A stretch of DNA of 58,540 nt, counting the filler, from Perkinsus olseni (lineage: Eukaryota): the NCBI GenBank assembly GCA_013115125.1. It is 3 parts of 3 records of this genome, joined end to end, with 100 filler letters (N's around TTAATTAATTAA, not from the genome) between each part and the next. Parts side by side here need not be neighbours in the genome. Positions count along the whole stretch, not along the records: positions 1 to 19,523 come from JABANN010000597.1; 2 more parts are not named here. One strand, 5' to 3'. The notes beneath the pieces were generated by a model. That model was not told the DNA's origin. It worked only from the letters and a program-made list of their open reading frames with translations, and made no database searches. Positions 1-52,591 of this stretch are shown one piece after another. The translations under genes and the position numbers were made by a program. Each line of letters starts with the position of its first letter. Position 1 is the stretch's first letter.

Positions 1-305
1 AAGTAGAAGCCGCAGAAGTCGCGGTCCAAAACGAAAGGCTGAGGGGCATCATGGCAAGGGTTGTAGTGCATCGTGACGGCCTTCAACCCGCGCTTGTTCC
101 TCCAGAAAGGGACGAACCAACGCCAATTATACTGCTGGTACTCCATGATGGTCTCGTTCCAGAAAGTAACCTCATGGCGAACATAAAGTTTCTTGAGAGA
201 GTGACCGTAGGAGACCTCGATGCAGTACTTGCTGGGAAGCTGGTCAGTGAGCAGACTGACCACGGAGATGATGAGAAGAGCGAATGAAAGGACGCGGGAA
301 ACCAT
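1..305 (-). CDS. Putative secreted hypothetical protein, 3'-partial (runs off window)
   Basis: ATG at 305 opens a frame with no stop before the window edge: MVSRVLSFALLIISVVSLLTDQLPSKYCIEVSYGHSLKKLYVRHEVTFWNETIMEY... Hydrophobic signal-peptide-like N-terminus. Not in the ORF track because it has no stop. Confidence 0.6.
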   Translation of the reverse strand, partial: MVSRVLSFALLIISVVSLLTDQLPSKYCIEVSYGHSLKKLYVRHEVTFWNETIMEYQQYNWRWFVPFWRNKRGLKAVTMHYNPCHDAPQPFVLDRDFCGFY

Positions 306-2428
306 GTGAAACTCGCTAGGAAACCTGAGCACAGAAGCATTAGAAGGATCAACACCAAGACACCCCGCTCGGGTAAGCCGAGTCGACACTATAGGTTCCC
401 TCTACGCATGCAAGGACCTCAAGCTTGACCTCAGAATGGAAAGGCCCACCTTGATATCCCGAGATCAAAATTATCCCAACATTTCCAGGGGGTTTGAGTT
501 GTGCGGAGCACGCGGTCACGTCACGATTTCTCGCCGCCACGCGTGACGAGATGCCGCTGTCCCGGTGGTAGGCAGCAATCCATCAAAATACGAGGAGCAT
601 CTGCCACTGTGTAGTCACTGCTCGAACGCTCACCAACAATGACACAATGCCGCTCCGCTTGGGAGCAACGCGAGCAGTTCTAACGCCCTACACGAGGAAA
701 TAACGATCCGAACAGAACGGATGCGCGGCGCGGCGAAGGGCTCCATGGACGATGCCATTGAAAGCATGAGAATAGACCGGACGATCGATAAACGAAACTC
801 ATTATCGCTCTACGAGAGTGCGATCGATCTCTCGCGCTGTTACCATCCACAACTTTCCGTCGATGCGGTTCGTTCATCAAGAGAAACGCTTCAAACGCTT
901 TGGAGAGAAGCAGGCAAATGCAGGCGTGACAGCTGGTCGCCGTCACCGTGCCGATTGGGGTCGGAACCTTTCCTGTCAGCCTTTCAACGACTGAACAAGA
1001 GCAGTCCCTACTCTCGAGAGGCTAGCCTCAGTCGATGTATCCTGACTCTGGATTCTCGAGCTCTACTGGGAACACTCACATTGCGGGTGCACGCTGCCGA
1101 CCTGCGCATGGGGCGTCTGGAGCCTCAGGAATGTGGAGGGCTGAACAGTGTTTAATGGAGGCCTCGAAGAAGCTCCACGAAGACTTTACCGATCAACGCA
1201 GGTGAATCGCCCACGAGAATAACGCGTTCAATATAGTGACAACTGCCTCCATTGCTGCTGCATACCATAAATCCTAAGTTTGCCGGCAGCAACTTGCTAC
1301 CCATATTTGCTTTCCGTGCGTGTTCCTCTTTGTGCTGTTACGCTCCGTCTATTTTTATGCGTGCAGAGTAGTCTGGGCAATAGCTCTTTCATAAGATCCA
1401 TCTCACAAGCTCCCTTTGGCCTTGTGTTCCACGTATGAGTAAGAAGAATACAACATGTGCGTCCAATCGCTCCGGCAATCGCGTGCATTCCTCGTCACGC
1501 GAGTGAACACACGTTTTCCCCGAACTCCTCTCGAGTCCGGTTTTACCAGTCTTTGAGCCCTGTCTCCAATAGCCTTACTGTACTAAGTTATGGTGTACCC
1601 GGCAAGGCTCTCAATGAAGCCCTATTATACGTATCAATATTCTTTTGTTGCTGTTGGAGCCTGGTTGCCAGTACTGCGACGTGGTGTTGAACCTTCGTAC
1701 GCTCGGACAGTCCGTGTCCGCCCCATCGTGGCAACAGCTCTCCCGTCTGCTGCTTTCCATACATATGGTGGAGAAGCCAACAGTAGATGTCACTGACCTG
1801 GCCCTTGATGGCGTCGTGACGACGCCGTCGTCCACAGACGTCATCTCACAGTTCCGTTGACCAACGCCATCACCATCTTCCCACTCTTCCGGAGAGAACG
1901 CGATTCAGGAATCGCGTGGCAAAAGGGAATTCTCTGGAGTGTTGAAGACTGTGCATCATGGTTTCACGTTCTTTACCATGGTCCCACTCGAATTACTCTG
2001 AGACCCAACAATCCGCGCCGTCGGCGAGGTCCTGTGCGTCCGGATCCCCACAAGGCTGTGCCACCGTCACTGCGGCACCATGCAGCGTCAAGTTGGTGCA
2101 TCACAAGTGTCGTGAGGACCTTGTGGAGCAAGTGCAACCCAACCAGTAACAAGCCGTGCTTCCACAGAGGGCTGGCACGTGCCTTGAAGAGCTTGAAACG
2201 GGCCGGTCGGTTGTTTGTTGGGTCGTGATTCATGAGTCCCTTCCATTGAACATCCCAGATTGTAAGAGGAGAGCGAACATTTGCCTCGGCGACATATTGC
2301 CCATGTCATCGTGGCTTTAGACGGAAGCATTCCGGGGTGGGAGTTTATACAGTATGAGTCCAACCCCGTGGTGAGATTACACTACCCTGAACTTTTACGA
2401 ACGCAAAACTACAGGGGAGGCTCACTGC

Positions 2429-4678
2429 TCACCCGCCTTGGGGGCCTGTTAAATTTACACGTGTAATGACCGATATCTCTCCTCGTTTAGTATCTCTGAC
2501 TAGCAGACTGCTGCCGTTACCACACCAGGATATCACTCCCGCCGCTGAGTGACGGGGGAGCTTGAAGCACAACTCTTCCTCGGAAAGGGGGCCGTCTTGT
2601 GAGATCATACAGCTATATACGTGGTGCTGCCCCAAGGTAACTACAGTGACAAGGAACGATGATAGGAGCACCTCGCTTCGAATCACTGAGACAAGGGCCG
2701 GGGCAGCAGCGTTCCACATCACTGGTAAGACGAGCCCGATTTTCGATATTGGCTGCTGGATGAGGGTCCCATTTGAAGTCTCTAACTTCTCTTGAGTGAT
2801 GCAGCACTGCGAGCAGGCACCGGGTCGCAAGGCACCAGATGTAGATGGCAGATGGCTGCCCTTCTGAAGCAAAGAAATGCTCAGTAAAGGAATCCGCCTC
2901 GAACCCATCCAGTAGGGGACTGACGGAAGCAGTACACGACACTCTGATGTAGGGCTTACCATCCCGAGTTGACAGGTATCGCCCTGAAGGGCTCCATTCT
3001 AGCCTCCTTATGCCTGTGAGACCCTGCATGCCTCGATTCTTTCGTATGATAAGTCGAGAGTGGTGACTGAGCTCCGTGGGCAGGGCAGAGTCTTCACGGA
3101 AGCTCTCATAGGCCCTGTTTTCGACTTTATCTGAACCATCCGACCCCTAAAAGCCTCGCTCGTGATGCAGTACGGGGTTCTCTCGGCGACACACAACAAC
3201 ATGATAGTAATGCCGTGACGTGGCCCTCAGAGTAGCAACAGGAAATCCACCGTTACGAGAGATAGTATGCCACGCACACTCCAGAGAAACTCTGACTCGT
3301 ATTCAACGATCATGACATCTCTCGTTGACGTGACGGCTGCTGGTAGAGCCACTGAGACCGGTGTGGCCTCTCACATCTCGCTTGTTTCCTGTCGGTGTCT
3401 TCCAGTCTGTAGATGAAGCATGGTCCCCCATTGGCAGTAGTACTGACAGGAAGCGGGTCGCCATGCGAGAAGGATGCAAGCAGCGACCAAGTACCTGATG
3501 GGAGCTCATCGAGTATGGATCTGGTGCCTGCCTCACTCGCGCTTAGGATATGTGCCTGCCCTCCAGCTGTGCCAACAGCTATCAGGCCCTCTTGCGGGAA
3601 TAGCGCCAAGCCGGTCAGACACACGGCGTCAGATTGCAAAGCACCGCTCGGAGGCATCACGGCATGTAATTGCTCCCCAGCTATCGAGTACACGTAGAGA
3701 AGCACGAAGGCCGTCGAGGATGCTGACGGATTCTCCCACACGAGGAGTTGCGAATCTTTGAATGAAGGCCAGGCGACACCGTATGCATCGACCGTCGGCA
3801 GTCCGAAATGAGAGACCTGATCTCCGAGAGGCCAGTAGCCAAGGATTTCCCTGGAACGGCTGAGCCTCGCCTGTTTAAATCCCTCCTGTGGGTCGTGTAT
3901 CGAGATGTAGTCTTTGCATTCCTGACAGAGGAATGGCGATGCCCGCTGCACTCACGAAGGAAGGGCCTACTCGTCTCCTAATGACTGCCAGATTCTGGCA
4001 TGTGTTACTGAAGGCAACAGTGGGGACGGCAGACGCCACGACCGCCGGTCCTAAAATTGCAATATGCGTGCCAGAGCGGGCTGGTGCGTCCGACCAGAGT
4101 GGTTGGTTGGTGACTTGGCGTACTCGATGCGCTCAATGCTTGACTGGGTAGTGAGGCTCCACACGTCAAGCCTCAACGAGAAGTCGGCTATCGCGAGTAC
4201 GTGCCTGCGAGAGCTTTCAGCGCCAGTTCAGGTCAGAGTACCCACCGACTATCGGGTGACCAGAGAGATGCAGCCAAGCCTGCGGAGCCCTGCTCAATAG
4301 TGCATCTCCAGTCAGGATGGTCAATCGGCGACAAGACAACAATAGAGCCACATTCGTTATGGGATGCCAGCAGAAGTCTCGAGTCCGGGGACCAAGCGAG
4401 CGCGGAGAGGCCGCTGCTACTGCTGCCTGTCAGCGTTGGTATCGGGATGGTAGCGATTACAGGATCACCGGAACTCTGGCAGCATAGCTTCCGGACGACA
4501 ACACGCGATCCAGAGCAACCTGTGGGCGTGCGAAGAGCGTTTCGGAGCTTTGAACAGACTAGAGCCCACCAGTCTTCACTGCTGTGGCTAGGTGGTTGCC
4601 ATCAGGCGATATCGCGGCTAGGTGCACCGGGATGCATTCGTAACCTGTGACGGTCGTAGTTGGGCCTGGCCGCAGCAT
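2429..4678 (-). CDS. WRAP73: WD40-repeat protein WRAP73/WDR8-like (centriole/cilium), multi-exon
   Basis: Exon peptides AAISPDGNHLATAV, CKDYISIHDP, YGVAW..LLVWEN..LYVYSIAG, LIAVGTAGGQAHILS..TWSLLASFSH, LEWSPSGRYLSTRD, PSAIYIWCLATRCLLAVLHHSREVRDFKWDP follow the order of motifs I recall for WRAP73. GT-AG introns lie between them. Confidence 0.82.
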
Positions 4679-4931
4679 ACAGAGGAGAAGCGATTCTGTC
4701 CATTCAGCCGAGCCGTGGATACGCTGGCTGAGGATTGACAAACACAACACGGTAGAAGGTGGTTCAATTAGAATATAAAGAAGCGTGCATTTAACAACTC
4801 TGTACTGTACATCGCTCCCTTATGAATACGTAGCAACAGCAGCGACAACAATGGACGCGGAGAAGACACCACAACAAAAGCAGATATCGAGCAGCCGAAT
4901 CCCTCCTGAGCCGACAACAGCAAGGCAGCTG

Positions 4932-7900
4932 CTATTGTTGGAAGAGGAATCGGAGGTCTTCGACTGCTAATTTCTGAAGAGCGCCTTGTTCATTGCCACC
5001 AACCGTGCCATCGAACACCAACTGCTTCTTCTCCTGAATAAGCACCGCTGCCAGCCGTCCTGAATGGCAACCTTCGCCTACTTGCAGAGCCAGGATCCTT
5101 TCCTCGACGGTGTCCTTAGTGATGAATCGCACAGCATTCACGGGCTTGGTCTGGCCCAGGCGATGGGCCCTCTGGATTGCCTGCTGCTCATAAGCTGGAT
5201 TCCACCAGGGATCTGAGGAAAGCGCCGAATAAAGAACGAAACGTTTCGAAAAATATCCTCGACGAGATTCCATCTAAAGGGCAATGAAGATACGCATCGA
5301 GAGCCTCGCGTGCCGACATGCCGCTACGACCATTCAATGAGAGATGATACCAAAACAACGCTGTTAAAAGGGCTGAGGGACTCGGGGTGGCTCACTAGGT
5401 GCACGAACAGCCGAGAATGGGTCAATGGGAGACGCATCGAGGCGGGTTCACCATTGGAAAACTGATAAAGGTTGGCTTACCGAGGAGGAACACGCTGCTG
5501 GCAGCCTGCAGGTTCAAACCCTCTCCTCCTGCCTTGAGGGAGATCAGCAGCAGGGAGAACTCGGGATCCTGAAGGATAATGTACAATTGAGAATGCGGTC
5601 TTGAGGAGAATGCTGATCGCAATACTACTTGACGGAAAGACAGGAGAATGTTCGATCGCTGCGTCATTGGGATGCCGCCGTGGAGCACCTAGCAAGGAGC
5701 CCTCCACAGCGAGCAGCCCTCGAACGACGATCCTTACCAGACAGGATATGCCCTCCCTTCGCAATTTGAAGTCCACAAGCTCGAGCATGCGGCTGAACTG
5801 CGAGAAGACCAACCTGACACAGAGTCCTGTCTTAGCTCATCCGCTGCCCGGTCGTCACATACCCCTTGGCGGCGGGATCTTTCTCCTTCATTTTCCTGAT
5901 CTCATCCAGCAGAGCATCAATCTTAGCCGAAGACTCGAACTCATCAGCTTTGATACGATTGAGGATGCTATTCCTCGTCCGCCCGCCGATGGGTGCGCTC
6001 TCCTTCACTTTCTCAGCCGACGGTGAGCCCTGCTGGCTCTCGTCCTCCTCGTCGACGGCCTAACGAAAGAGCCGTCCTATGAACTGGACCGTCGGAAGCT
6101 GCCTGAGGCCCTCCGCTCCGCTCTGAGACTCCTCCCTTACCTGGCCGAATGTAACTGTTATGGGAGCAAAGCACGCCGGGCATCCGATCCCTCCGTTCAA
6201 CGGCAGCTGCGGCGCTTCTCGAAGGAAGTCTCGCACGCACTCACTGAGACACAGTAGGCAGTAGAGGGGAAGCAGACGGCCTCGGCACTCACTTATGGAA
6301 GCTATGCCCACATGTAGCCTTAGCCTGAGCCTCATTCTCGTTGGTGGTTCGGGCCGGGATGTCGTCTTGGCACAGCACCTGCCGAGGAGCAGAACATCGG
6401 CTCCTAACAGCTGTGATAAACCCTACACAAATATCAGCCCTATCCTTCCCAGCAGCGCTCTTAGCAGGGATCGAACCGCAGTCCATGCCATGGACGATGA
6501 GATAGGGGTGATCTACTGCCTGAAGGAGCACCTCGATCACGCTTAGGGCGGCGAGAGAGAAATCCTACCTGCCTCAACCTCGTCAAGAGGTCGAAGATAT
6601 GAGCATAGTTGTTAAGTACAGTCCCTTCATCCGCGTAGACGTTGAACCGTAGCTGACTCTGCATGGCCAGGCTTTCATAGAAGTCCTTCTCGCTGTCCGT
6701 CAGTTCCGTTCTCCTAATGCTCACAGTCATCGACGGCAACTGTAAATCGTCAGCACGCTCCTCTTTGGTGCGCCGCAGCAACAGACGATCCAACACCCGC
6801 TCGCGGAGCTCCTTCAGGGCGTCCTTGCCAACACCCGCGAAACCGTGCCTGAAAAACTAACGCATCAAAGAGCTGCGGCGGGGGGACTGGTGAGGCTGCC
6901 CGGCAATCCTCACTTGAGAATCGGCTTGCTGATGGTTTGGTTGAAGTAGGAGTAGTGCTGCATCTTCGTGTGGCCGCATCGTTTGCAGTATCGATTGTCC
7001 TCGAAGCGATAGGCCATCGACTTGCAGTCACAGTCCTTAGCCTTGCAGAAGTAGAAAGCGTACGGATCGTTCTTCAAGAACCTTCAACATCACCACCATC
7101 CTCAGCCGAGCGGCAAGGTTCCATCCGACCCACCGTATCAGGGAGTAGAGCTCTCCCACTCGGTTCTGCAGTGGCGTGCCGCTGAGGCCCCATCTGTATT
7201 CAGCCCTCAACGCGTACCTTCCCATCAGCCCTGGGAATGCCGAAATGCAGAGGAGCGAGGAACTTACGTTCCGAGGGCGGTGGTGGTTGTCCGGCCCTTG
7301 ATACGGTGGGCTTCATCCAGAATGACCCTCCCCCACCGAACGCTATGGAGAGCTGACTTCGACAGATCCAAATCGCTCCGCTCGCAATCTGACCAACGAC
7401 GCTCTCCAGCTGACATGAGCCTGCATATTACCGGAGGTGTCATCACCAGCATCTTCATCCCCTCCCTCCTCATCCCGCAACTTCCTCGCTGTCGCTCTGG
7501 TAACCCGCCCAGCACGCATCGACGCCGAGGCCCGCGGCTTAGCTTTCTTTCCCCTACCCTTCACCACCTCAAGCTCGCTATCACTGGACTCGCTAGAACC
7601 ATCGGTAGCATCACTCTCATTTTCCCTACTACTGCTGCTCGCGGAGGCATCGCTTGGCTCATAGTCGTCGTCGGCGGACGCCTTGGCTCGTTTGGAAGGA
7701 GCAGGGCCTCTGCCTGCCTGAGGCTTCACAGTCTGTCGGAGCCGGGCAACCACGGCACGCTTGTTTGAGGCGCTCATTCTCCGCTTCTTGCTGGGAGGGG
7801 ACGGTGAGCTCTCCGACTCGGGCGATGAAGAGCCGGAGGAGGAGGAGGAGGAGGAGGACTCCGATACCGACAGTGTGGCGCCCTCCTTAACATCGCTAGA

Positions 7901-9990
7901 GTCGGGGCTACTACCGAGGCTGACCGGTGACGACCGGCTGCCTTTGACGGTTCGAGGCGCTATTGTACTTGAGCTGGAAGGGCTTGCCTTCACCTTGCAG
8001 CGACGGGAGGGCGCCCTTCGTGGCGCAGTGTCAACCTCCATCGATATTGGCTCTTCCAACTTCACCTGTTTCTTCACTTTCCGTCGTTCGGGAGTGCCAA
8101 CACTGGCCTCGGATTTTCCCACATCTTTAGTAGCAGCTTTCGAGGTCTTCCTCATCCTAGCGATACGTTCGCTGTCCACCGCCTCCCGAACCCTCGCCAC
8201 CAATGCCGCCTTCAGCCCGGACGTGTCAAGCCCCATCTCCTGACACTTGGCGCGCAGCTCCGCCACTTTCAGCTTCCCAATGTCCGTCGAGGAGAGCCGT
8301 TCAACTTTATGCTCCTCTTCCGCGACCTTCTCTTCAGTCGACTCGCCATTCATCTTCTTCTGGTCTTCCTCCATCTCCAAGATCAACGACACCAGCTCCG
8401 CACGTCTCATCTGATTAGGTATCTCCATGCCGGGATACCTAGGATACGGAACATCGAGGGACGCCACTACAAGGCTCCTTCTACCTGTCCATGATGACCT
8501 CCTTCAGCTGCCGCATCGTCATCCGCCGGATACTGGCTTCATCTATCTCAGCTCGCTCCTCAGTCTCGTCATGTTTGGCTCGTTGCTTAGCCCAATAATA
8601 TTCCTTCACCTTCCAAATACTTGCCTTCTCGGCATTCTCCATGCCCGCCTTGGCCATCACTTCCCGCAGGACATTCCCCACAGTGGGGGGCTTGTAATCA
8701 CTCTCAGCCTTCCTCTTCGATCGACTCCCAACCGATTCAGGGCTGCCCGATGTTTCCTCTCCGCCAGCCGTCGGGATTCCCAAAGTCTTCTTAGCGGCCT
8801 CCGCTGCCTCTCGGAATTTCCTATGAGTTTTACTCTGCTTTGCCGTCTTCTCCGCGTCCGGCCCGCACATGTACTTTTGATGCCAGATAAGCTTGTCGGG
8901 CAGGAAGGCTCTATGGCAGTACTGACAGATCGACTTCAACCTGTTCAGCTGGTTCCTGTACTCATACTCCATCGTTTGATAGGTCGTCAAGACCACATCG
9001 AACTTAAGGAGGTCCTCGCCTTTCAACCGCTTGTTGCCGTGGTAGACGTGGACCTTCAAGGAGTCCGGCTTGAGGTAGCGATGGATTTCGCTGTACCACT
9101 GCATCACCGCCGCCACCGGGCACACTACCAAAGTCGGGCCCTTGGTATCTTCTCGGCGTTTCACGATCAAAGCGACAGCCTGGATGGTCTTGCCCATGCC
9201 CATCTCATCGGCCAACACCCCGCCCCTGCACTCCTTGGTGAGCTCCTGGTTACACATCCAGGCGAGGCCTTCTCTTTGGAAGGCTAGGAGCGGTATGACG
9301 AGCTGACACCACCACGGAATATCGACATTCTCGACATTCTGCGACCTACTTCGTCGGGAGGGGTGAATTTGTCCACGAGCAGCTGGGAGACCATCTGTTT
9401 CATTCCCCCTATGTCCAGATCTTCCATCCTCTTCTTCTCGTGCCGCTCTCGGAACACTTCTAAAAGCGATTCCTTGTTCTCATCCGTCAGGCCTTCGAAG
9501 CCCATCATGTTCTCAGCGAACCATTTCGATGTATCGCATACAGCACCTCCAGAGGGTGCTTCGGAGTCCCTGAGGAGAACAGATAGGCAAGCTGAGCCTG
9601 ATCGGAATCATCGGCTTACCCATCTACTAGGCCTTCGAGGCAGCCATTTATCTCCAAAAATTTGAATGGTGCACACTCTGCATGGAACCAAATGATAATC
9701 GCACCAAGATTTCCTCGAGGATCCTCTACAGGATATCCGAACCGCAACGATGACTTCGGTATCTTATGTCCGCACCGCCGGCAGGTGCTCAATCCTGACT
9801 TCGCCAGATCAGTTTCGAGCCTCCAGTCCTCCAGAGCGTCGGCCTGCTTCTTCTTTAACTTCCCTTGCATATCTTCGGTGATCCAGTTTTTGGTGGTAGG
9901 ATCCCACTTTACCCTAGGCGCCGGTCTTTTCAGTTGGGAGCTCTCCGCGGATAAGAAATTCTCGAGATCGAACGACGCGGGTATATCCAT
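4932..9990 (-). CDS. RAD16: RAD16-like SNF2-family helicase/RING E3 ligase with N-terminal PARP-type zinc finger and SAP/HeH modules, multi-exon
   Basis: Motif [16 protein letters not shown]; motif [11 protein letters not shown]; motif [25 protein letters not shown] ([18 protein letters not shown]); helicase C ([37 protein letters not shown]). N-terminal [21 protein letters not shown] (zf-PARP). [32 protein letters not shown]. Confidence 0.92.
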
Positions 9991-10455
9991 TGGAGAGAAG
10001 AGTGGGGTGAGCTGCCACCACTGATGACAACAAAGTGAACTACTCGTACGCGGATGACTAACGTTGCGGAAGATCTTAACTGGTTCTCACAGCTTCATCG
10101 AAACCAAGAGACATCCCCAGACCAGTGCGCTCATTGTCTAACAGAACGATAGACAGGAAAAATCACGAGGGACAGTGCTCCCTCAGCGGCAGCAGGACTG
10201 GCATGTCACTGACCAATACGCACTATCGAGGGACGGTCCGGCCACACACTAGCGCTACTCAACAAATGCTAGACTAGCCGTGCTACGTTCCTACCCGTGC
10301 TAGCCTTATACACGTTTGTGTGCGAGTACTCTGCGGAGAGTGTCTCAGTTCTCCATCTGCTCCAAACATCTCCATATATGTAGTACCAATATCATTGGGT
10401 GCAGCAATCATCCCTCAGGAGAGGTCACGACATCAAGCTACGAACATGAAAAGCC

Positions 10456-10535
10456 TGACAGCTGTGGGGTTCGAACCCACGCCCTTTCGGACTGGCGCCT
10501 TAAGCCAGCGCCTTAGACCACTCGGCCAAACTGTC
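10456..10535 (-). tRNA. tRNA-Leu(AAG)
   Basis: Reverse complement GACAGTTTGGCCGAGTGGTCTAAGGCGCTGGCTTAAGGCGCCAGTCCGAAAGGGCGTGGGTTCGAACCCCACAGCTGTCA folds into a full cloverleaf with a long variable arm; anticodon AAG. Confidence 0.95.
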
Positions 10536-10964
10536 GATAAAAGACCATATTATTTCAGAGCAGCAAGCATACGCATCACAGCATCCAGCCAAAATTCGGT
10601 CCACAGCAATGTGCTTCGGGTTGATTTTATAAAACAAAGCGAAATTCCTCGCGATATCTGAAGTTATTCATTCCGCTGCCCACGACTTCAACGTATATCT
10701 AGTGATGATAAGCATGCGCATGTGGCCCACATGATGTGGGAAATTCGATATGACTACGAGCATCACAGAAACCGAAACCGTGTACCAACAGAAACGTGAG
10801 AGCCGCCAGAAACCGTCCCCTCTCAAGCTAACGCTTCTAACAGGACGAAATTCAACACAAGTCGGTGACTGTGACCAGTCAAGAAAAAACCTTTACGTGA
10901 TTACTATGGGGTCTAACGAGCATCTCTGTCATACCGGTAACGTCGCGATCTGAGTAACATGCCT

Positions 10965-12079
10965 TTACCTGCTTGAGATCGATCTGCGTTGATTCGCTGA
11001 AGCGCGCCTACCATGAGTATTCCCCCTACCCCAGTAGGGCTTGCTGTGGTATCCCTTCCCCTTCGACCTGTAGCTTGGGACAAGTCGAACGGGTGCTCCG
11101 ACAGGGTATCGGCTACTGATAGGAGATGGCGCCCCCTCTGTCCGCCAAGATCCCAGATATTTCGTTTCTTGCCGTCCGCCGGTAGCTGTTATGTAATGGT
11201 ATTCACGATCAGCTGCTGCAGAATTAGCCGAAGACGGTCCATCCGAATTCAATCTCCATGCCCCAAGGTACTTAGAACTTCGGTCTTTCAGAGACGTTCC
11301 GATATTGCCACAGTCTGGCAATCCGGGCGTCTCTACCGTCAGCTCCCTCAGTACATCCCCCGCCACCCGGTCCACGGGCGTGAGCTCAGTGGTAGGCTCA
11401 CATACATCCGCATACGAGAGATTCACCCTATCTTGGCTGCTGCCTCGCTTGCTGAGCTCATCATCTCGACAGCTGGCTGGTTGCTCGTCACTTTCCATAA
11501 CGGCTGGGGTCTTCTTAGGAGACTTGTTGACTGCAGGGGGCTGACATGATGGCCCCAAAACCCAGTGTTCTGCACCGCTATCAGAACCGATCTTGCTTAC
11601 CAGCGTCTCACAGAAGCCTTGCACCAGCATGGCCTTCTTTTTCTTGGCCAGACTTTCAAAGCCGACCACGTGTCCAGCAAGCCAGGCCTGGACTCCGGTG
11701 GAGCTGCAGCAAGACAGCGAGTAAGGGGACCCTGGGGTGCCAGTACTTACTCTCGGTCACGGCACAGCTCAGCGAGCGTTGCATCATTCGACACGAGCTC
11801 CTCAGGCAGACAGTGTACGTGCAGGAATAGCGAACGCACCCCGTCCGCGCTGAACTTGTCCTCTGCTGGGAACCCCACCCTCAAGTCATTCTCCAAGATT
11901 TTCCTCTCGCAAGCGATACAGTGTGTTCTGCTGTGCGCTGATGAATCAACGTTAAACCTCCATGTTTCGGTCGCCCCAACCGGGACCTCAGCAGGTAGGG
12001 TCCAGCACTGACGGGGCCGGTCCCACGTCGCACCCGCAGCCGCAACGACGCTCACTGAATTGCTCCGCTCCGCGGTCAT
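10965..12079 (-). CDS. PARP-type zinc-finger protein, paralog 1 (two exons, disordered C-terminus)
   Basis: Exon 1 MTAERS..WDRPRQCW..SRTHCIACERKILENDLRVGF..FLHVHC. An intron at ~11704-11750 (GTAAGT..CTGCAG) joins in frame to WLAGHVVGFESL, the zf-PARP C-terminal helix, and on into ORF 10965-11669. Confidence 0.78.
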
Positions 12080-12367
12080 GAACCAAGCCAGAAACCCTAC
12101 AAAGGTGATCGGGCATATAATGACAGACACTATCTAAAGACCCTCTGAGGAGGACTCGCAGGGCCGAGAACCGGTTGGAGGGCACTGAATGGAAGAAAGA
12201 AAGCGAAGGCCCATATTGATAAGCTGACCGCGAACCTACGGAGGCCCCACTGTATTCCCACAGCCGTCACAAAAAGTCATCCTTGCTTCCCAAGAAACGT
12301 TCATTCACATCTTATTCTACTCAACTTACATCTCCATTACATTAAAGGACTTCATCTAATAACAGCA

Positions 12368-15300
12368 TCAACTCCTAGACGGGTAGGCTCTCTCTGGTGA
12401 GGAATAGTAATAGCATGCGGGTCGGCCAGTATGAAGCCCTGAGGGAAGAGCCAATCTGGTAATAGCAGCCTCAGAGCGACGCCCCAGTACACCAGCCCAT
12501 CTACAGCTCACACCTTCAAGAGACTTACCGGAGGCTCCACGCGGTGGTGGTGGCCAGCGGTCCCTCCCAGGCATTGGAGGGGCATTTGGTGGGGGAGGGA
12601 CAGGACAGCTGGCCGGGGTGGCATAGCGACCAAAGTTGGAGCCCATAGGAGGCGGGGGAGCACTTCCACTGCATGTGTAATAGCTCGACGGTGGGCGCGG
12701 TGTGAGTATCGCATACGAGCCGCCTTGGGATGACCAGCCTCTTTGGTACTCATCAGACCATTGCCCCGTATTGGTCCCCTCGGAATCTCGCCAAGCTGGG
12801 ATCCGGTTGTCCACCACGGGATGTGCCGTCGATCGGGACCAGCCACCACTGTGATAATAGCTCTTCGTTGAGGCCCCCCTACCACTACTGGGTGTATTCC
12901 CCTCGCCGCGATCCGCCATCGGGGTTGGCTGGTCCCGAGGGGGCGGCGGAGCCCCGGCCGGTGAGGTACTGGGCTGGAGGACAACCTTGCCATCGCCACC
13001 TCCGACGGATTGTGGACCGGTCCTGTCCTCACTCGCTGTGCCAGAGCTCTCCATAGGGACAGGGGCCGGAGGGGCGGGCAGGATCTTCTTCGGCGACAAT
13101 ACAGGTGTAGCTGAAGCCCCGCTTCGTCTGCTGGTCGACCCCGCCCGGCTACTAGTATGACAAGACCGTGATCTGTGTCGTCTGGTGCGCTGGTGATTGC
13201 TGCGGTGGTGAGAGGAGGAACCCCTCGAGGAGCGATGCCTTCGACTCCGTTCTCGGGAAGACCGTCTGTCGTGGCGCCTAGAGGATGAGGATCGTCGACC
13301 CCGGCGGCTGCGGCTCCTCCCTCGAGCGTGCGGTGATGCTCTGTTCGACCGGCTGCGCTTCGGCGACTGAGAAGTTGGTCCAGCTCCTCTGCCGACAACT
13401 TTCTCAGAAGCTGAGGGCTCGCCAGTGGAAGCTACAGCAGTAGGCTGTCCGCTTGTGGGCCGGAGCGAGCTCGATGGCGCTTCCGCAGGCGGCTCTGCAT
13501 TGCCACCTGGCGGTTCATCCCTCGGCTCCTCAACTGCCTCCATTTCCTCGCTCACAGCGTTCCCTTCATCCCTCGGCTCCTCAACTGCCTCCATGTCCTC
13601 ATTCACAGCGTTCCCTTCATCCCTCGGCTCCTCAACTGCCTCCATGTCCTCATTCACAGCGTTCCCTTCATCCCTCGGCTCCTCAACTGCCTCCATCTCC
13701 TCATTCACAGCGTTCCCTTCATCCCTCGGCTCCTCGACACCCTCAATGTCCTCATTCACAGCGTTCCCTTCATCCCTCGGCTCCTCGACACCCTCCATGT
13801 CCTCGCTCAACGCGTTGCCGCCGCTCTGTACTACAGGTTGACACCGGGGGTCATCAACTTTCTCGGTCGTGCACAGAGTCGACTCGCCGGTGGAAGCCGA
13901 TAAAAACGGCTCAGCAGCAGTACTCTCCTCGGCCTGGTGGAGGTGGCTAGGTGGAGCAGGACTCGAGGACTGTGCGGCATCCACTCCAGGTTCCATCTTT
14001 ACTCTCCATGGTCTATCAACCCTCTCGAGCTTACATCCAGTGAGAGCACGCCTAGCACGCCCCAATCCACGGCATGCCGAAGTCGATGCCACGGGCTCGC
14101 GTTTCACAAGTGGAGCCCTCGCCTGCGCTCTCCGGGATACCTCTTCCTTGACCATCGCCGTAGAGGAGCCCTGATCGCCGACCGTTGTCCCCCTCACCTG
14201 GGAGGGTTTTTCCCTCGTCGCCCGAATGCTGGTGCCCCCTGCGAATGGGGATTCTCCTTCAGAATGCTGCTCAGCCTCAGTTGACTCGTTTGCGTTTGAC
14301 GGAGATGCCGGAAGGATCCGAGCTACGGCCGGTGGAAGGAAGGGAGGCTCATCCTCGTGTGCACCATGCTCTCCCGTGGAGGCAGTGCTACCAGTAGTAC
14401 TCGAAGCCTCGACCGGCCTCAGTGCCGCTGCCCGCTTGGATTTCTTTCGAGGACCTCTCGCCCTCTCCTCCGGTTCCGGGGAACGGCGCCGTCTCCGTTT
14501 CCTGGGTCTGCTAGAGCCCTTTCCGCCCTTCTTTGAGTCCCCGCCTTCTCCCGCAGGCTGTGGCGCTGGCTTCGACGCTTTCACTTTCTCTCGGCGTCGG
14601 GTCTCTTTTTCCACCTCACCATCGCTAGGCGACTCTTGCTGCGGATGCCGCTTTTGATACTTCATTATGCGGCTTACAATAAATCCTCTTTTACCCGTCG
14701 AACTGACACCAACCTCCTCACAGCACTTCCGCAGCTGCGGCAAACTCAGCTCGTCCAGCTGCTGCCTCGTGAAAGGCCGTACGAGATCCTCTGAGGGCGC
14801 CGGCGACGCTGGAGGGGACGTCTGGATCCCCGCCGACCTCTGCGGGGCCTCTTCCTGAGGAGCCTCTGTCGTCAACGGCAGGTCCTCAGCGTTGTAGGTC
14901 TGCCGAAGAAACCAACGTCCCTGTCTAACGGCCGCCCCCTCCACCTTGATACCAGCATGGACTCTCGAAACCCAACGGCGAGCTTCATCTGCTTTTTGTC
15001 CTTCAACGAATCAAAGCCGTGGACGTGCTTCCCCAACCACACGCTAAGATGCCGGATACTGAGAAAAGATACCTGCCGGAGCGCATCCAACCAGCTGCCC
15101 ACCTCCTCTGGCCACACAAATCCTTCACAGCCGGACAGCCAATAAAGACGTCCTCCGCTAAGCAGTGCTCATGCACGTACAAGGTTCGGACACCGTCAGC
15201 GCTGAAGACATCCGAGGTCGGGTAACCGAGCCTCAGACTGTGCTCCAGGATCTTCCGCCCGCATCCGCAGCAGCGAGTGTTACTGTGCTCCGGCTGGTCC

Positions 15301-15437
15301 ACTGTGAAATACCATTTTTCTCGACCACCGTCATCTGGCGACTCATAAAGAGTCCAGCATTCACGCCGGTCATCCCACTCGGCGTTGAAGACCGGCGAGG
15401 GCCTGGAAGGCCCCACGGGGGCCTCAATGGCCGACAT
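12368..15437 (-). CDS. PARP-type zinc-finger + SAP domain protein, paralog 2, with acidic tandem repeat and RS/Pro-rich tail
   Basis: WDDRRECW..SNTRCCGCGRKILEHSLRLGY..YVHEHC; second exon WLGKHVHGFDSL; SAP-like LDELSLPQLRKCCEEVGVSSTGKRGFIVSRIM; long 858-aa terminal ORF. Confidence 0.8.
13514..13816. repeat. Coding 51-bp tandem repeat, about 6 copies (17 aa EDMEAVEEPRDEGNAVN)
   Basis: TTCATCCCTCGGCTCCTC recurs at 13514, 13565, 13616, 13667, 13718 and 13769. Confidence 0.95.
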
Positions 15438-15987
15438 TGACTAAGTCAATCAACTTTGCAAACGGGCGGCATTGGTTTATGCCACGATCCTCCTTCACGA
15501 TGCATCACTTCTTAGGCGCTGATTCCAACGAGAAGCATCAACTTTGATGATGAAAATGAGTTACCGAGCAACGCTGAGTTGCTGTCGCCTGTGGCCGTGC
15601 GCCAACTCGGAGGTCCTCCGGCTGAGATCACCAGATCGGGTCCGGCTGATCCTCAAGAAGCCTTGCAAAGTAGAGGCTATAAACAGAAGCTTTCACTGCT
15701 CACAAGACAAGCATCGGACGCAGCCATCTACCGTACGACCCCACAGCCAGCAGAACCACTGGGCTTATTGCGAACACACAGTCAAGCCTCTTGGTTTCAT
15801 AGAAACATTCACTACTCTCGACATGACTTCCTTTATTCTAATCAGCAGAAGCTTCCTCACATCAGAAAATAGTCAAATTACGATATCACTTCCCAAACCG
15901 ATGGGTTCTCCGCGCCGGGTAGTATGGCCGTGGGATTTCTCGATGGCCTGAAGGATCAAAGCAGACGAATATGGAATGGCCCGAGAA

Positions 15988-17943
15988 TCATTCCGACAGA
16001 ATCTTCCGATGTAGCATGAGAGGCATCACAACAGCACCCTCACCTGAGCTCCCACGTGAGTACGGCGTACGACCCTTCCCAGGCAGCGATGCCGGGAGGC
16101 TGGCGTTGGGCGCAGGAGGAGGCAGGCGAGGAGGAGGAGGAGGCCGGTGAGAGGCAGATGGGCAGCCGCCGAGGTACGGAGTCGTGGGGGGCGGCAGAAA
16201 ACTTCCTCCGCCAGAGTAATGCGGGTAATTAGACATGAATCTTGGAAGAGCCATACGCGGGTTCATCGGAGCTGGCCATCTCCCTTGGTGACTATCAGGC
16301 GGCTGCATGATGTGACCAATAGCCGGCGTCTGGCACGGGCACCTCACACCCGCAGAAACTGTGGCGTGAGGGCCACATCCAGAGGGGCTGGCATTCCCCA
16401 CCGGTGCCACCCCAGCATCCGATACCCTCCCGAGTTCCGCATTCACCATGTTGCCCTCAGTCTGTGTGGCACGTTCCTCTACGCCTCTCCTCACTCTGCG
16501 GGCCGAACAGCCTGTCGACTTCCTCCCGAGACTCGCCCCAGTTCGCTCAGCCGCCGCGGCTCTCCCGGGTGAATCAGCCTCTGCATCGCGGTTTGCTGGT
16601 CGCCCCGCTCCAAACCCAGCTCTCCTCCGTCCCATTCCATTGCCCCTCGACCTCACTTCGCGCTTCACTCGAGCCGCCTCCGCCTGAGCAACTCGATCCT
16701 CCTCCTCCTTGGGCGTCTCATCAGAAGGTGCCGGGGAGTCTTCGAGGTCTATCACCTCAGTGGAAGTGGGTTTATGTGCCCTCCTCACCGGGGCGCCTCC
16801 TTCCAGACCCTTACTTGACACTCTAGCTCGCCGCTCGATGTCCGCGTACGATTTCGGAGAGACTCGAGCCTCGGCGGAGCGAGGACCACGCCCCTCAGTC
16901 GATGCAGTGCTGCCAGTAGAACTCGAGCCCTCGGCCAGTCCTGACGACACCCTTCTGGCTCTCTTGCGAGGAGCCGTCGAATCAACTCCCGGTGGCAGCG
17001 AAGAGAAACGCTTATCAAGGCCTCCCTTAGCCGCTGCTGAGGAAGCCTTACCTCCACGCCTGAGTGGCGCCGAAGACTCCCGAGCGGCTCCTCTTCTATC
17101 CCTTGCTCGGGTCGATCTTTCTCTTCGATTGCTGGACGACCCTTTCTGCCTAGATTCCTGTGCCTGCTGCTGCAGTGATCGGCCGGCGAGATTCGAGTTC
17201 TTGCTAGCAGCCCGCGTACCAGTCTTTTTGCTACGCATTCGTCCCTGAGAAGAGTGGAGCATCTTTAGTCACCGCTCCAGAAGAGGACGGGTGAGGAGAC
17301 TCACTGTGATTTCAGGATCGGTCGGTCGGGCCCCAGAGGAGTCCTTCCTCGACATAGCTCTTAGCGAGCCTTTCCTCCTAGGTTCTTCTGCTACCGCTGG
17401 ATCGAATGCCTAGAGGACATAACGCCGTCCACTAGCGATGGATGTCTTTCTCCTTACGAAGGAAGCTCTGAATCCATCGGCCAGCTGAGCTCTCTCCTCC
17501 TCAGCCAACTTCTCGCTTCCATGCACATGTGCAGCCAGCCATAGGACCAGTTTCCGGCCGCTAGAAGGAGATGCCTGCAGACAACTGAGGCGGAGCGAAA
17601 TCCCACCTCCGGCTACGACAGGCATCCCTGAGGTCCCCGAGAGCTGTAAAGACATCGCTCGGCAGGCAGTGCTCATGATGGTACGCCGTCCTCACTCCAT
17701 AAGCACTGTAGCTGTCCAGTACTGGATATCCCACCCTCAGATGATGCGCCAAGATGATCCTCCCACAGCCAGAGCAGCGAGTCTCATTGTGCCGCGGCTT
17801 CTCCACCAAGAGAAACTATCGCCTTCATCACTGCTGACAGATGACGACTCGAAAAGAGCCCAGCAATTGCGCTGGTCGTCCCAATCGGCGTGAAACGCCG
17901 GTCGAGACCTTGAAGGCCCCGAGTGACCCTCGGTCACTGACAT
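15988..17943 (-). pseudogene. PARP-type zinc-finger protein, paralog 3; apparent frameshift/stop in exon 1
   Basis: MSVTEGHSGPSRSRPAFHADWDDQRNCW in one frame; VEKPRHNETRCSGCGRIILAHHLRVGY..YHHEHC in another, preceded by TAG where the paralogs have Trp. Later WLAAHVHGSEKL and a 424-aa tail sharing SSxTGSTAST with paralog 2. Confidence 0.65.
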
Positions 17944-18151
17944 AAACGAAGTCAACTGAGACAATTGTCGACAGTCGATAAGAGACGGCGCGGGATGAGT
18001 CGATCGCCACCCGGCCGTGATGAGTAACACAGAGCGGTGCTGAATGATGATAAACTAGCATGACACCATGATACTCTACGGTCTGTACAGCGACAGACGA
18101 CTAAGACATCATAACTACTCTATTTCTGCTCAGGAGATGATGATGATGAAT

Positions 18152-19437
18152 TCACAGCTGGAATAAGAACTTGAGGTCAGCGATGGTGAGCTTCTCAAGG
18201 CCACCGTTGAAGTTACCACCAATGGTTCCATCGAAGATCAGCTGCTTCTTCTCCTACCACAAGGAAATGATGAGTATGCTATTGTCCTAATCTGTCGGAG
18301 ACAGCTCGAGAAGAGCACAGCATATGAAGCACGAATAGAGATAACGCAGCAGCTCGCTCGATCCCTGGCGGTGTTAGAAAATGACTTTGAGGTGGCCTTA
18401 CTTGCAGTGCCTTGATCTGCTCCTCGATGATGTTCTCAGAGATGAGGTGATGACTTCTCACAGCTTGCTGTTGTCCCAGGCGATGGCAGCGCTGGATGGC
18501 TTGCTTCTCCAAGGCCGGGTTCCACCACGGGTCTGAGCAGTGCCACCTGATCCACTTGCCGGCATATCGGGCTCACCAAGCACGAAGACGTGGCTGGCCC
18601 TCTGGAGATTGAGGCCTTCCCCACCAGCGGAGATCGATACCAACAGGAGGCTGCAGTCGGACGCCGACGACTGAAACACGAAGGTGAAGGATCATCGCTA
18701 GAGATGACGGTGGCCCACCTCCACGAAGGCCTTGATGATTCTGGTGCGGACGGCGAGAGGTATCGAACCGTGGATGATCTGACGACATGGGAGGGCATAC
18801 ACAGAAGCACATGACAGAAACATATAGCATGACGTCGATCGCCCTTGCTCGAAGCGACAGTCTCACGAAGGTGGTGATCCCTCTAGCCTTGAGATGGTAC
18901 TGGCACAGCTCAAGAAGCTTCACGAAGCAGGAGAATACTAACCTGAGAAAGTGAGTCGATACTTTCCCGACAATCAATGGGCTTGCATTTTCGCTGTCAA
19001 GGATGATCGGAGCTGAGTTCTGCATACTACTATACTACGTATAGCATATTCAGTGCGCATGGGGTCGGGCGGAGCGAAGCAAAGAACGGTGTGACGCGGA
19101 TTTCGAGCCAAATTTGCACGCAGGCGACCTCACGAGTCGTGAGGTCACGACGTCGAGAATCAGCGAGATTGAGCCAGATGCTCAAGTCACTGAGTAGGCC
19201 AGTGGAATTGTCGGACGAACTGTCTCACCCTTTAGCCTGCGGATTCTCTCGGCGCATCTCCAAGACCTTGGAAATGAGAACATCGATCTTGGACGATGAT
19301 GGTATGGCGGGCCCGTGCATGCCCTGTAGTTGGGTGATGACACTGTTCCTTGGAGCCAGGCTCGACAGGGAAAGGAGGGCCCTGACTTCCTCCGAGGATG
19401 TGCCCTTCATCCCTTCCGGTGCCATAGTCGTTTGAAC
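18152..19437 (-). CDS. Second RAD16-like SNF2 helicase, C-terminal exons only (5' part beyond contig end)
   Basis: [90 protein letters not shown]. Intron positions parallel those of the first helicase. Confidence 0.88.
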
Positions 19438-19523
19438 CTGAACTCATAGATATCGTGAGTCATTGATAACCAAACCCCACTCTAGTGGATTCTTAGAGGA
19501 ATCTGTAATTAATATTATTGAGC

Positions 19524-19623
19524 NNNNNNNNNNNNNNNNNNNNNNNNNNNNNNNNNNNNNNNNNNNNTTAATTAATTAANNNNNNNNNNNNNNNNNNNNN
19601 NNNNNNNNNNNNNNNNNNNNNNN
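19524..19623. other. Artificial contig-joining spacer N44-TTAATTAATTAA-N44
   Basis: Exactly 100 nt with a six-frame-stop linker; an identical spacer is at 39144. Confidence 0.97.
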
Positions 19624-20002
19624 CCGAAGTGGTAGAACTGTGAGGGCCCTGCGTAGAGCTAGTGTTGGTAGTACTAGACGATGATGGCACTGCTGTAGAT
19701 GAGGGGCCAGTGGAAGGAAAACCAGTAGTGGTTCCACTGGAAGTAGACGATGTGGTCCCGGTGGTTGACGACAGCAGCGTTGGTCCAACAACAGCGGTGG
19801 ACGAGGGAGGTACATCGGCTCCACCACAGGGAACTGATGAGCCTTCACAGAGCCCAACGGTGAAGTTACACTTGCTTCCAGTTATTCGGGCTGTGTTCTC
19901 ACAATAGTCATCCCAAGCTTGCTGACTTGGCACAGCCCCTCCCACTTGTACGATTACAGAGGCCATAAGGACGGCATAGGCGATGTGGAAGCAGCAAGCC
20001 AT
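19624..20002 (-). CDS. Secreted Cys-module + Thr/Ser-rich (mucin-like) protein, 3'-truncated by gap
   Basis: MACCFHIAYAVLMASVIVQVGG signal-like start; module AWDDYCENTARITGSKCNFTVGLCEGSSVPC; then a S/T-rich linker. Confidence 0.7.
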
Positions 20003-20551
20003 CAAGGAGCTCGGTAAAATGCTTAAAAGCTGACAGATAGGGGTTAATCGTCCACATTCGAGGAGTGTCCAGGCGGCATGATTGAACTTGCACGCGCGTG
20101 CACATCCAACCGTTTTGTCCCTGGGCGCATCCCTTCTCGGCGTGTCTCCACTTTCGTGCTGACGGAAAGCTCCTGAGACCGTCATAGGTGACACTGTAGG
20201 GCCCCTTGAGTGCTATAGCCCATGTAGGGTACACAACTTCCTGTTTGCAACGCCTTGGTACACGCGTGCCCCCTCCGGCAGTGAAACGGCTCGGCGCGCG
20301 CAGGTGACCGCTGGCGGGTTGCCGGTCGAATCACAGCCACTCAAAACCAAACTGGGAGCAGCTACTAAGCAATCGAATAGAGTTCAGCGTAGCGCATTCC
20401 CGGATCGCAGCGAGGGTCTGCCGGGCAGACTCTGCCGCCGATGATAGAGTTACGAGCGATGGAGGACTCAGAAGACACGCCAAAGGCCCTCCCACTAAGT
20501 GTTTGCATTTAGTAATTAACACCCTTCCCAACCACTCCCCGCTGACTCGCC

Positions 20552-21580
20552 ATGTACTCGTCAGGCATACCTGCCCTGTTATCACTAACAGCAGCCACCC
20601 ACCGCGGGCTACATAGGCTACCCGAGTGGGACAGCTACTGCAGGGCCGTCAACGGCGCGGCGAGTTTCTGTATCAGAACCCAATTACTGGGAGATTTCTG
20701 CGCTTTCGGCAATGAGGAATGCGGCAGTGGCACCATTCCGCCGTACACTACTACGCCATCTACCACACAACAGCCGACAACCCCGGAATCTTCTACTCTT
20801 CCACCTGCTTCTACCACTACGACTATTACGGTGACGACCCTCCCACCGAATGCGTGGGACGACTTTTGTAGGGGTCTGAACGGTCCCTCCAGTTTCTGTC
20901 TTTCAACTACCCTCCTCGGAAGCTTCTGTGCCTTCGGTAATCAACCCTGCGCGAGTGGCGATCCCTCGACCATCACACCCGAGGCCTCCACGAGCTCCTC
21001 AACTACAGCCACGGTGTCCCCTTCCACAACGACGGCAACGCCATCCACAACTCGCACTTCTACTAAGCCCGTTTCCGTCTCTAATACACCAACGGCAATG
21101 CGGCCTGAAACTCAGCCAGTAGATTTCCGACCCGCATGCGATAGTTTCTGCGAGAAACTGAACGGCCCCGCCTCCTACTGTAAGGATTGGTCATCCTTCC
21201 CTGTCTGCCAGTTCGGCAATCAGCCGTGCGGATCTCTCGTGGATTGTCAGCTAAGTACCCCTATACCAACGCCCGCAGTGCTGAGCACTTCTCCCATTCC
21301 AACAGCGAGGAGTCGTGGCTGTGACGAGATGTGTAGAGATCTCAATGGTGCCTGGTCGTACTGTAAATCTTGGGCTACCAACCCGGTGTGCCAAGGGGGC
21401 AACCAGCCCTGTGACGGCCTTTCCTGCTCAGCGACTGTTGGTGGTGACGCGGCCGTCCGCGAGGACTGCTCCTCGATGTGTATCAGGCTCAGCGGGCCAG
21501 GCTCGTATTGCAAGGTTTGGAAGGACCCCCCGACCTGCCAAGGAGGGAATCAGCCATGCGGCGTTCCCCACTGTGACTAG
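20552..21580 (+). CDS. Secreted protein with five Cys-rich ~35-aa repeats and Thr/Pro-rich linkers (intronless)
   Basis: 342-aa ORF with a short hydrophobic N-terminus and a repeated module close to [WC]DxxCxxLNGxxS[FY]C-x8/9-CxxGNQPC. Confidence 0.85.
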   Translation: MYSSGIPALLSLTAATHRGLHRLPEWDSYCRAVNGAASFCIRTQLLGDFCAFGNEECGSGTIPPYTTTPSTTQQPTTPESSTLPPASTTTTITVTTLPPNAWDDFCRGLNGPSSFCLSTTLLGSFCAFGNQPCASGDPSTITPEASTSSSTTATVSPSTTTATPSTTRTSTKPVSVSNTPTAMRPETQPVDFRPACDSFCEKLNGPASYCKDWSSFPVCQFGNQPCGSLVDCQLSTPIPTPAVLSTSPIPTARSRGCDEMCRDLNGAWSYCKSWATNPVCQGGNQPCDGLSCSATVGGDAAVREDCSSMCIRLSGPGSYCKVWKDPPTCQGGNQPCGVPHCD

Positions 21581-39143: not shown

Positions 39144-39243
39144 NNNNNNNNNNNNNNNNNNNNNNNNNNNNNNNNNNNNNNNNNNNNTTAATTAATTAAN
39201 NNNNNNNNNNNNNNNNNNNNNNNNNNNNNNNNNNNNNNNNNNN
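39144..39243. other. Artificial contig-joining spacer N44-TTAATTAATTAA-N44
   Basis: Same 100-nt construct as 19524-19623. Confidence 0.97.
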
Positions 39244-52414: not shown

Positions 52415-52519
52415 TTGTTGAGTGTGGTTGCAAGGCATTCGATCGATTCGAAATATTATCTTCAGTCGGATATCTTTGAATGTTAAATAACTAAATGGCT
52501 ACATTGAAGGGCTTTTGTA

Positions 52520-52591
52520 GGGTGTGTAGCTCAGTGGTAGAGCGGCTGACTGCAGATCAGCAGGTCCTCGGTTCAAATCCGGGCGCGCCCT
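52520..52591 (+). tRNA. tRNA-Cys(GCA)
   Basis: GGGTGTGTAGCTCAGTGGTAGAGCGGCTGACTGCAGATCAGCAGGTCCTCGGTTCAAATCCGGGCGCGCCCT; intact cloverleaf with some G-U pairs. Confidence 0.9.

Follow-up and report, generated by a model that had tools for sequence, protein, structure and literature searches.

We examined a 58,540-nucleotide stretch of Perkinsus olseni DNA (assembly GCA_013115125.1; here called the window), in which three parts of three records are joined end to end. The first part (positions 1 to 19523, from JABANN010000597.1) carries a cluster of five minus-strand units: a full RAD16-like helicase gene (H1), two intact stand-alone genes with a zinc finger of the zf-PARP type (P1 and P2), a third such gene with a broken frame (P3), and part of a second RAD16-like gene (H2) (Table 1). 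An earlier note on this DNA had described three helicase-less zf-PARP paralogues, all in one orientation, between two RAD16-like helicases. The common orientation and positions hold. Two of the three paralogues are intact, the third is probably a pseudogene, and the upstream "helicase" (19437-18152) amounts to a 223-codon HELICc segment. A tRNA gene that the earlier note did not mention separates H1 from P1; it was the sole match in an Rfam scan of 4000-19523. Both gaps between the parts are the same artificial linker, and thus DNA past 19523 is uninformative about the neighborhood of the cluster.

Table 1. Coordinates of the cluster units and of other features in the window
Feature	Position	Strand	Evidence or remark
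H1, full RAD16-like gene	4932..9990	-	spliced model, Pfam, RNA joints
tRNA-Leu(AAG), between H1 and P1	10456..10535	-	ARAGORN; Rfam RF00005
P1, stand-alone zf-PARP gene	10913..12079	-	spliced model, RNA joints, P. marinus orthologue
P2, stand-alone zf-PARP gene	12368..15437	-	spliced model, RNA joints, orthologue P0011
P3, P2 duplicate without SAP, probably transcribed pseudogene	15988..17943	-	frames, RNA runs
H2, HELICc C-terminal segment of second RAD16-like gene	18045..19437	-	introns matching H1
Artificial contig linker, 44 N + TTAATTAATTAA + 44 N	19524..19623	.	identical linker at 39144-39243
Thr-rich, Cys-repeat protein, signal-like N-terminus	19568-20212	-	divergent from next gene
Thr-rich, Cys-repeat protein, signal-like N-terminus	20546-21580	+	divergent from previous gene
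Radical-SAM methylthiotransferase-like gene, intronless	27165-28880	-	UPF0004 + Radical_SAM
Ankyrin-repeat gene	48386-49654	+	
tRNA-Cys and tRNA-Arg	52519-52775		ARAGORN
SufE-like gene	57178-57852	-	
22-base scars	1811, 10719, 20416, 24556, 24792, 24918, 25075, 35547, 36960, 38688, 41428, 56552		

Four public sequencing runs (X1, X2, X13, and X15; one recorded as RNA, two presumed to be RNA, and one unlabelled) were compared with positions 4700-19520. Their contigs skip GT-AG introns and match the window at >99%; they may come from one lineage and so do not count as independent genotypes. The 15 joints listed, of 32, comprise nine introns of H1, three of P1, and three of P2. P2 is trans-spliced near 15453 and P3 near 17955, and the loose ends at 15456 (run X15) and 17957 (runs X1 and X15) match, on the gene strand, the Perkinsus spliced leader at its 3′ end, the leader sequence being taken from primers in PMC3101222. 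Separate trans-spliced mRNAs for P2 and P3 contradict the public gene models, which fuse neighbors (P0002 joins H2, P3, and P2; P0006 joins P1, H1, and a WD40-like gene), and the present analysis thus corrects an annotation in which the cluster genes are chimeric. Gene order is conserved in such fused models, with P1-H1-WD40 in another P. olseni strain (P0006), H1-WD40 in Perkinsus chesapeaki (P0010), and, in P0011, a P2-type sequence that precedes a P1-type one.

The spliced model of H1 (9990-4932) has 16 introns and encodes 1334 amino acids, arranged as a WD hairpin with zf-PARP, an SNF2 ATPase split by a C2HC finger, SAP, a Ser-rich linker, RING, and HELICc (Pfam E-values of 4e-9 for zf-PARP, 6e-29 for SNF2, and 1.9e-12 for SAP). 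At least nine of the introns are confirmed among the joints listed, and exon lengths agree with RNA coverage arithmetic to within 2 nt in eight internal bins, a ninth being off by 4 to 13 nt. Pfam searches of exons, alleles, and orthologues found the SNF2 N-lobe, the HELICc domain, and a RING ahead of it that mark RAD16/Rhp16 proteins, and both P0006 and P0010 carry the UniRef name "DNA repair protein rad16." H1 is 90% identical to its P. chesapeaki orthologue in the C-terminal half; zf-PARP scores are 45.8 bits for a spliced H1 allele, above the gathering score of 39.3, and 37.0 bits for that orthologue. A WD40-like gene (~2400-4820) lies directly downstream and is joined to RAD16 in P0006 and P0010; the H1 RNA contigs (~4230 nt) exclude it.

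A finger on the N-terminus of RAD16 is not peculiar to this locus. The helicase part of H1 was matched by 24 of 156 proteins from a profile search, three of the 24 being Perkinsus models, and zf-PARP, SNF2, and HELICc occur together in named matches that include Vitrella and Hondaea. The order PF00645, PF00176, RING, PF00271 is shared with RAD16/Rhp16 of Vitrella brassicaformis (P0163), Hondaea fermentalgiana (P0182), and P. chesapeaki (P0010), with SAP also in Vitrella; PF00645 was absent from the domain listings of plant RAD16 matches. Judged from these domain orders, the zf-PARP-bearing RAD16 is a common protist architecture rather than a local feature. Together with a Rad7-type partner, RAD16 serves global-genome excision repair in yeast. 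Our literature search, with subscription papers outside its coverage, found no paper on the function of the protist RAD16 finger.

The module shared by H1 and the three paralogues is largely as first described. All four WD-x5-W motifs and all four CxxC..LRxG[YF]P..HxxC fingers are present, as is the following helix motif given as W-x5-G[FS]xxL, except that P3 reads W-x5-G-S-E-K-L and so lacks the Phe; the W-x5-G-F-xx-L part falls within the Pfam zf-PARP domain. First-exon pieces match that domain with E-values of 4e-9 (H1), 1.1e-4 (P1), 2.9e-3 (P2), and 4.9e-4 (P3), all under the gathering score of PF00645, and spliced homologues of P1 and P2 likewise fall below it at 22.8 to 26.8 bits. The P2 N-terminus is modelled by AlphaFold with a mean predicted local distance difference test score (pLDDT) of 83, the finger itself mostly reaches 85 to 97 in the models, and Foldseek supports the same fold as in human PARP1 and ligase III fingers (E 6e-6, probability 1.0), with fingers of these two proteins at all listed ranks down to 28. 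The Cys-x2-Cys...His-x2-Cys zinc ligands are invariant in H1, P1, P2, P3, and their orthologues. The arginine equivalent to R34 of PARP1 (PARP1 numbering, by alignment to solved structures) is invariant as well, a residue that we take to contact DNA in PARP1.

The WD-x5-W extension is a RAD16-family hairpin, forming two strands in both AlphaFold models. Among helicase-linked fingers, its relaxed form occurs in 10 of 31 from outside Perkinsus (13 of 34 once Perkinsus models are included), compared with 14 of 247 other fingers, six of the latter being paralogue copies, and we therefore rejected it as a private mark of the cluster. A relation of the extension to DUF5710 was also set aside (E 0.003 to 0.008, below threshold).

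P1 encodes 338 amino acids, and all three of its introns are seen as RNA joints in all four runs. It is 62% identical over 310 amino acids to its Perkinsus marinus orthologue, tail motifs included, and 75% identical in the finger module. The earlier note had the paralogues replacing the ATPase and RING with long disordered tails; ATPase and RING are indeed absent, and the P1 tail (residues 209-335) is modelled at pLDDT <50 from a shallow alignment, while the finger folds. That tail is, however, not featureless: two YLG[AS]WR repeats and a VGAPVRLVPSYR...EPYW motif (10913-11400) are kept in P. marinus, and these are candidate short binding motifs. In the ESM Atlas, the P1 finger gave only zf-PARP-like clusters and the tail gave nothing. 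P1 contigs were deeper than H1 contigs in X1 (390 versus 47) and X15 (252 versus 36), roughly twofold so in X2, and of equal depth in X13; since genes cannot be ranked by contig depth, this difference was kept as a lead only and not used as evidence. One 22-base scar lies between P1 and the tRNA gene.

P2 encodes 960 amino acids and has three introns, two seen as RNA joints in all four runs and one in three of four. Its first exon is 100% identical to a stretch of the protein annotated as P. olseni FOL46_007910, and its finger module is 68% identical to that of P0011. The finger is followed by a degenerate SAP-like domain, an acidic 51-nt (17-amino-acid) tandem repeat (13463-13870), and a tail that is Arg/Ser-rich and Pro-rich. 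The claim that one paralogue keeps a SAP domain thus survives in weakened form: the segment aligns with the SAP of H1 (pairwise E 0.002) and is modelled as helix-loop-helix, yet it scores only 12.7 bits against PF02037 (E 0.1; gathering score 23.9). Allele P0003 differs in sequence at the start of the acidic repeat region.

In P3, the WD motif and the finger lie in different frames, which the earlier note had joined without remark into one module; the finger frame meets a stop at 17816-17818, and the break falls at ~17816-17838. The gene is transcribed, and its 3′ end may differ, since one RNA piece begins at joint 16043. At the break, the RNA runs list no indel or substitution against the window. 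The covered length of bin 17570-18064 was 343, 348, and 347 nt in three runs, compared with 351 nt if unspliced and 328 nt if a 23-nt intron were removed; this arithmetic assumes one contig depth over two bins and, with 15 of 32 joints listed, is indirect. The P3 mRNA likely keeps the frameshift. Two introns that would restore the frame were rejected, a 23-nt GT-AG intron (17838-17816), given that the shortest modelled introns are 43 nt and coverage favors no splicing, and a 44-nt GC-AG intron, for which the arithmetic again favors the unspliced form. A 14-nt transposon scar was also rejected as the cause, none of the 12 scars in the window lying at that site. The rest of the P3 frame is open over ~550 codons, which implies either a recent break or continued use of the region. 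The P3 branch is long in the finger trees, at 0.5 to 0.67 against 0.12 to 0.22, and no P3 protein was present among seven protein matches, which included other P. olseni strains. P3 is probably a transcribed pseudogene.

One might then suspect that all three paralogues are debris of a broken tandem duplication, given the frame break and long branch of P3, its missing protein, and the partial state of H2. Such a reading fits P3 only. P1 and P2 are intact, conserved across species, and transcribed and spliced in the RNA contigs. By the Nei-Gojobori method over 134 to 136 finger codons, the nonsynonymous (dN) and synonymous (dS) distances are 0.44 and 1.48 for P2-P3 and 0.67 and 2.72 for P1-P3, while P1-P2 gives a dN of 0.55 with saturated dS. 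These comparisons among paralogues indicate purifying selection on the finger, with dN/dS at ~0.3 or less, far below the neutral value near 1 that the earlier note had named as grounds for refutation; lack of transcription, named there to the same end, is likewise not what the runs show. Taken with the conservation in P. marinus and the kept gene order, they point to P1 and P2 as old, maintained genes; for these two the debris reading is refuted, and for the set as a whole it is hardly credible.

H2 consists of 223 codons with HELICc only, a stop at 18152, and poly(A) near 18045. Its five introns share positions and phases with the last five of H1. Identity to H1 is ~54% (dN 0.44, dS saturated), far less than between H1 and the P. 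chesapeaki orthologue, which points to an ancient duplication or to rapid evolution of H2. The contig contains neither an SNF2 N-lobe nor a RING or finger for H2; its end lies 86 bases upstream, where run X1 shows a repeat from 19450 onward. The first exon of H2 opens on an acceptor whose phase equals that of the corresponding internal exon of H1, and the motif VI region is intact, both of which suggest that the contig end has truncated a longer gene. We lean toward such a truncation by the assembly rather than a true HELICc-only gene. In a word-based search that may miss such proteins, none of 54 matches of 826 to 2631 amino acids, the window's own model aside, exceeded 54% identity to H2; among 34 matches under 826 amino acids, the only close ones were two partial P. 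olseni proteins. The poly(T) loose end and the coverage of H2 are almost confined to run X1, and the missing coverage in X15, X13, and X2 was not used as evidence. A perfect 21-base palindrome, centred on one base, lies at 19126-19146 in the long first intron.

Where did the paralogue fingers come from? P1, P2, P3, the P. marinus protein P0007, and P0011, treated here as the paralogue set, form one clade (SH support 100; 100/100), with 37 to 75% identity among themselves. When a profile built from the paralogues alone was run against 274 fingers, the Perkinsus RAD16 fingers ranked first and second (50.8 and 49.7 bits; the next scored 40.3), and medians were 28.5 bits for helicase-linked fingers and 16.0 for others. 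Conversely, all five paralogue fingers scored 44 to 55 bits on a hidden Markov model of non-Perkinsus RAD16 fingers, compared with 28 to 39 bits on one built from 233 other zf-PARP fingers. H1, P1, P2, and P3 share a phase-2 intron downstream of the second helix, displaced by ~2 codons in H1. Like protist RAD16/Rhp16, the paralogues have the N-terminal hairpin and the RxGYP type of finger; unlike it, P1-P3 lack ATPase, RING, and HELICc and carry His and Cys changes absent from those RAD16 fingers.

Several observations weigh against descent from RAD16. Identity of the paralogues to H1 is only 24 to 27%, the intron match is inexact and sits in a loop with indels, and the reference fingers were drawn from a search seeded with the window's own four. 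In a maximum likelihood tree of 33 fingers, the paralogues are sister to the Perkinsus H1 with support of only 39/53; a 74-row tree, which sampled 30 of 232 canonical fingers, leaves their placement open, and a grouping of the paralogues with canonical fingers was not rejected by an approximately unbiased test (p=0.20, with 2000 replicates and a short search). One could accordingly argue that the fingers came from an unrelated zf-PARP protein of the PARP1, ligase III, or PNKP type and lie beside RAD16 by chance, for which the low identity to H1 and the test result speak. Against such a source stand the profile rankings and scores, the RAD16-type hairpin and RxGYP motif, the shared intron, and the location between two RAD16 copies, and we regard it as very improbable. 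The proposal of a partial duplication from the adjacent RAD16 is thus upheld by the profiles, the intron, the SAP likeness, and adjacency, with the tree unsettled; it is likely, from these comparisons, that the paralogues derive from the RAD16 5′ end.

We imagine that the RAD16 5′ end (hairpin, finger, and intron, and probably the SAP region) was tandem-duplicated without the ATPase in a common ancestor of P. olseni and P. marinus. Rapid divergence of the copy would have followed, during which a remodelled finger became fixed, and the copy would have given rise to both P1 and P2; P3 would have arisen later from P2 and now seems to be decaying, and H2 would be the 3′ part of a further old duplicate of RAD16. 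The stem branch of the paralogues is long, at 1.4 to 1.6 changes per site, with strong conservation after it.

The remodelling extends to the DNA grip. The paralogues share fold, CxxC...HxxC ligands, and the R34-equivalent Arg with the fingers of human PARP1 (Zn1/Zn2) and ligase III (PDB 2dmj, 2n8a, 3od8, 4av1, 1uw0). They differ in having a single finger, an extra N-terminal hairpin, and no catalytic domain, and in that the AKSGR loop has become xH[SCN]x and WxH has become [FYH]xHxH. K15 of the AKSGR grip is lost throughout; S16 is His in all paralogues, a residue found there in seven of 281 fingers, every one a Perkinsus paralogue copy. At R18, whose hold on the phosphate backbone is presented as key to PARP1-type DNA binding in PMC8150716, P1 and P0007 (the orthologue from P. 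marinus) alone retain Arg, while P2, P3, and P0011 have Asn, Glu, and Glu and H1 has Leu. Arg occupies this position in 195 of 247 non-helicase fingers but in only 15 of 34 helicase-linked ones. Given this and the Leu of H1, the RAD16 family may grip DNA differently, and loss of R18 need not prevent binding.

On balance, we favor the reading that P1 and P2 descend from RAD16 and serve in the nucleus as enzyme-free binders of DNA or chromatin, lying beside their parent by origin. They would hold DNA or chromatin through the finger, and in P2 also through SAP, while the disordered tails recruit partners; they would adjoin RAD16 because they arose there, not because a joint function requires it. 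Nuclear nucleic-acid binding by P1 and P2 is, in our estimate, a reasonably good prediction. Of the two, P1 is predicted to be better suited to binding DNA ends or distorted DNA, because the Arg equivalent to R18 is kept, and P2, in which it is lost, looks more like a general DNA/RNA scaffold. It counts against such binding that the modules are slightly net acidic and that the K15/S16 grip is gone, so that DNA binding may be weak or absent.

Another set of changes would fit a finger converted to a different use. Five Cys/His residues (C27, H51, H91, C108, and H123 in P2 numbering) are invariant in the five paralogues and absent from H1, and possibly form a second metal site. On this idea they would make a metal or redox site, and the ligand would be protein, RNA, or something other than DNA breaks. 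The S16 His confined to Perkinsus paralogue copies, the long stem branch followed by strong conservation, and the Arg/Ser-rich and Pro-rich tails of P2 are in keeping with it. Yet the extra residues are five of 34 invariant non-ligand columns, a marginal enrichment (binomial p 0.01 to 0.13 by background) in only five related sequences, and R34 is kept, as is R18 in P1; we judge a conversion unlikely. If it did occur, the His of the grip loop would join the four other invariant Cys/His residues in a second site, making a two-metal or redox-switched domain, and P1 and P2 would found a zf-PARP subfamily that reads, for example, oxidative stress or RNA and regulates chromatin through disordered tails, an outlook just as unlikely.

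The earlier note had proposed that P1-P3 are break sensors, decoys, or adaptors in a dedicated repair module with the flanking helicases. The predicted fold is that of a DNA-break sensor, the linkage to RAD16 is kept across strains and species, and P1 retains the equivalents of R18 and R34. A precedent is Hpz1 of fission yeast (PMC3435320), a finger protein that stands alone there and is joined to Rad3 in other fungi. It influences UV resistance, its loss causing modest UV sensitivity, and the authors argue against a major role in DNA repair. The linkage is, moreover, what tandem origin would leave behind, the grip loop is changed (His at S16 in all paralogues, Asn or Glu at R18 in P2, P3, and P0011), P3 is probably broken, H2 is a fragment, and the finger is normal in protist RAD16. 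We find a repair module doubtful, and the present evidence neither links P1 and P2 to the activity of RAD16 nor reveals a new repair pathway.

Under the favored reading of RAD16-derived binding proteins, Hpz1 is still the closest parallel: like P1 and P2, it is enzyme-free, with one PARP-type finger and a low-complexity tail, and it has a fused genome-maintenance homologue in relatives (PMC3435320). Hpz1 is tied to Rad3/ATR C-terminal fusions in fungi, whereas the paralogues go with the N-terminus of RAD16, occur alongside the fused parent, and make up a tandem family; the two are presumably of independent origin. Other small finger-only proteins are noted in several eukaryotes in that paper. 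No description of these Perkinsus genes was found in the literature covered, subscription papers lying outside it. RAD16-type and stand-alone architectures may already be listed in a survey of families of PARP-like fingers (FEBS J, 2008).

Elsewhere in the window, two divergent genes encode Thr-rich, Cys-repeat proteins that had no match in Pfam and, from their sequence, are probably secreted or surface-located. Twelve 22-base scars have a form in which bases 1-7 of a sequence X are followed by the reverse complement of X and by bases 2-8 of X; eight are exact, and four have one mismatch. The remaining features appear only in Table 1.

P1 and P2 thus probably represent an unstudied small family of predicted DNA- or chromatin-binding proteins. 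They offer a fairly clean, datable case in which a DNA-sensing domain leaves its enzyme by partial duplication and is remodelled, with the parent still adjacent. As the modules are small, soluble, and confidently modelled (~135 amino acids), the fingers of parent and offspring can be compared, and such a comparison would bear on the role of the finger in protist RAD16.

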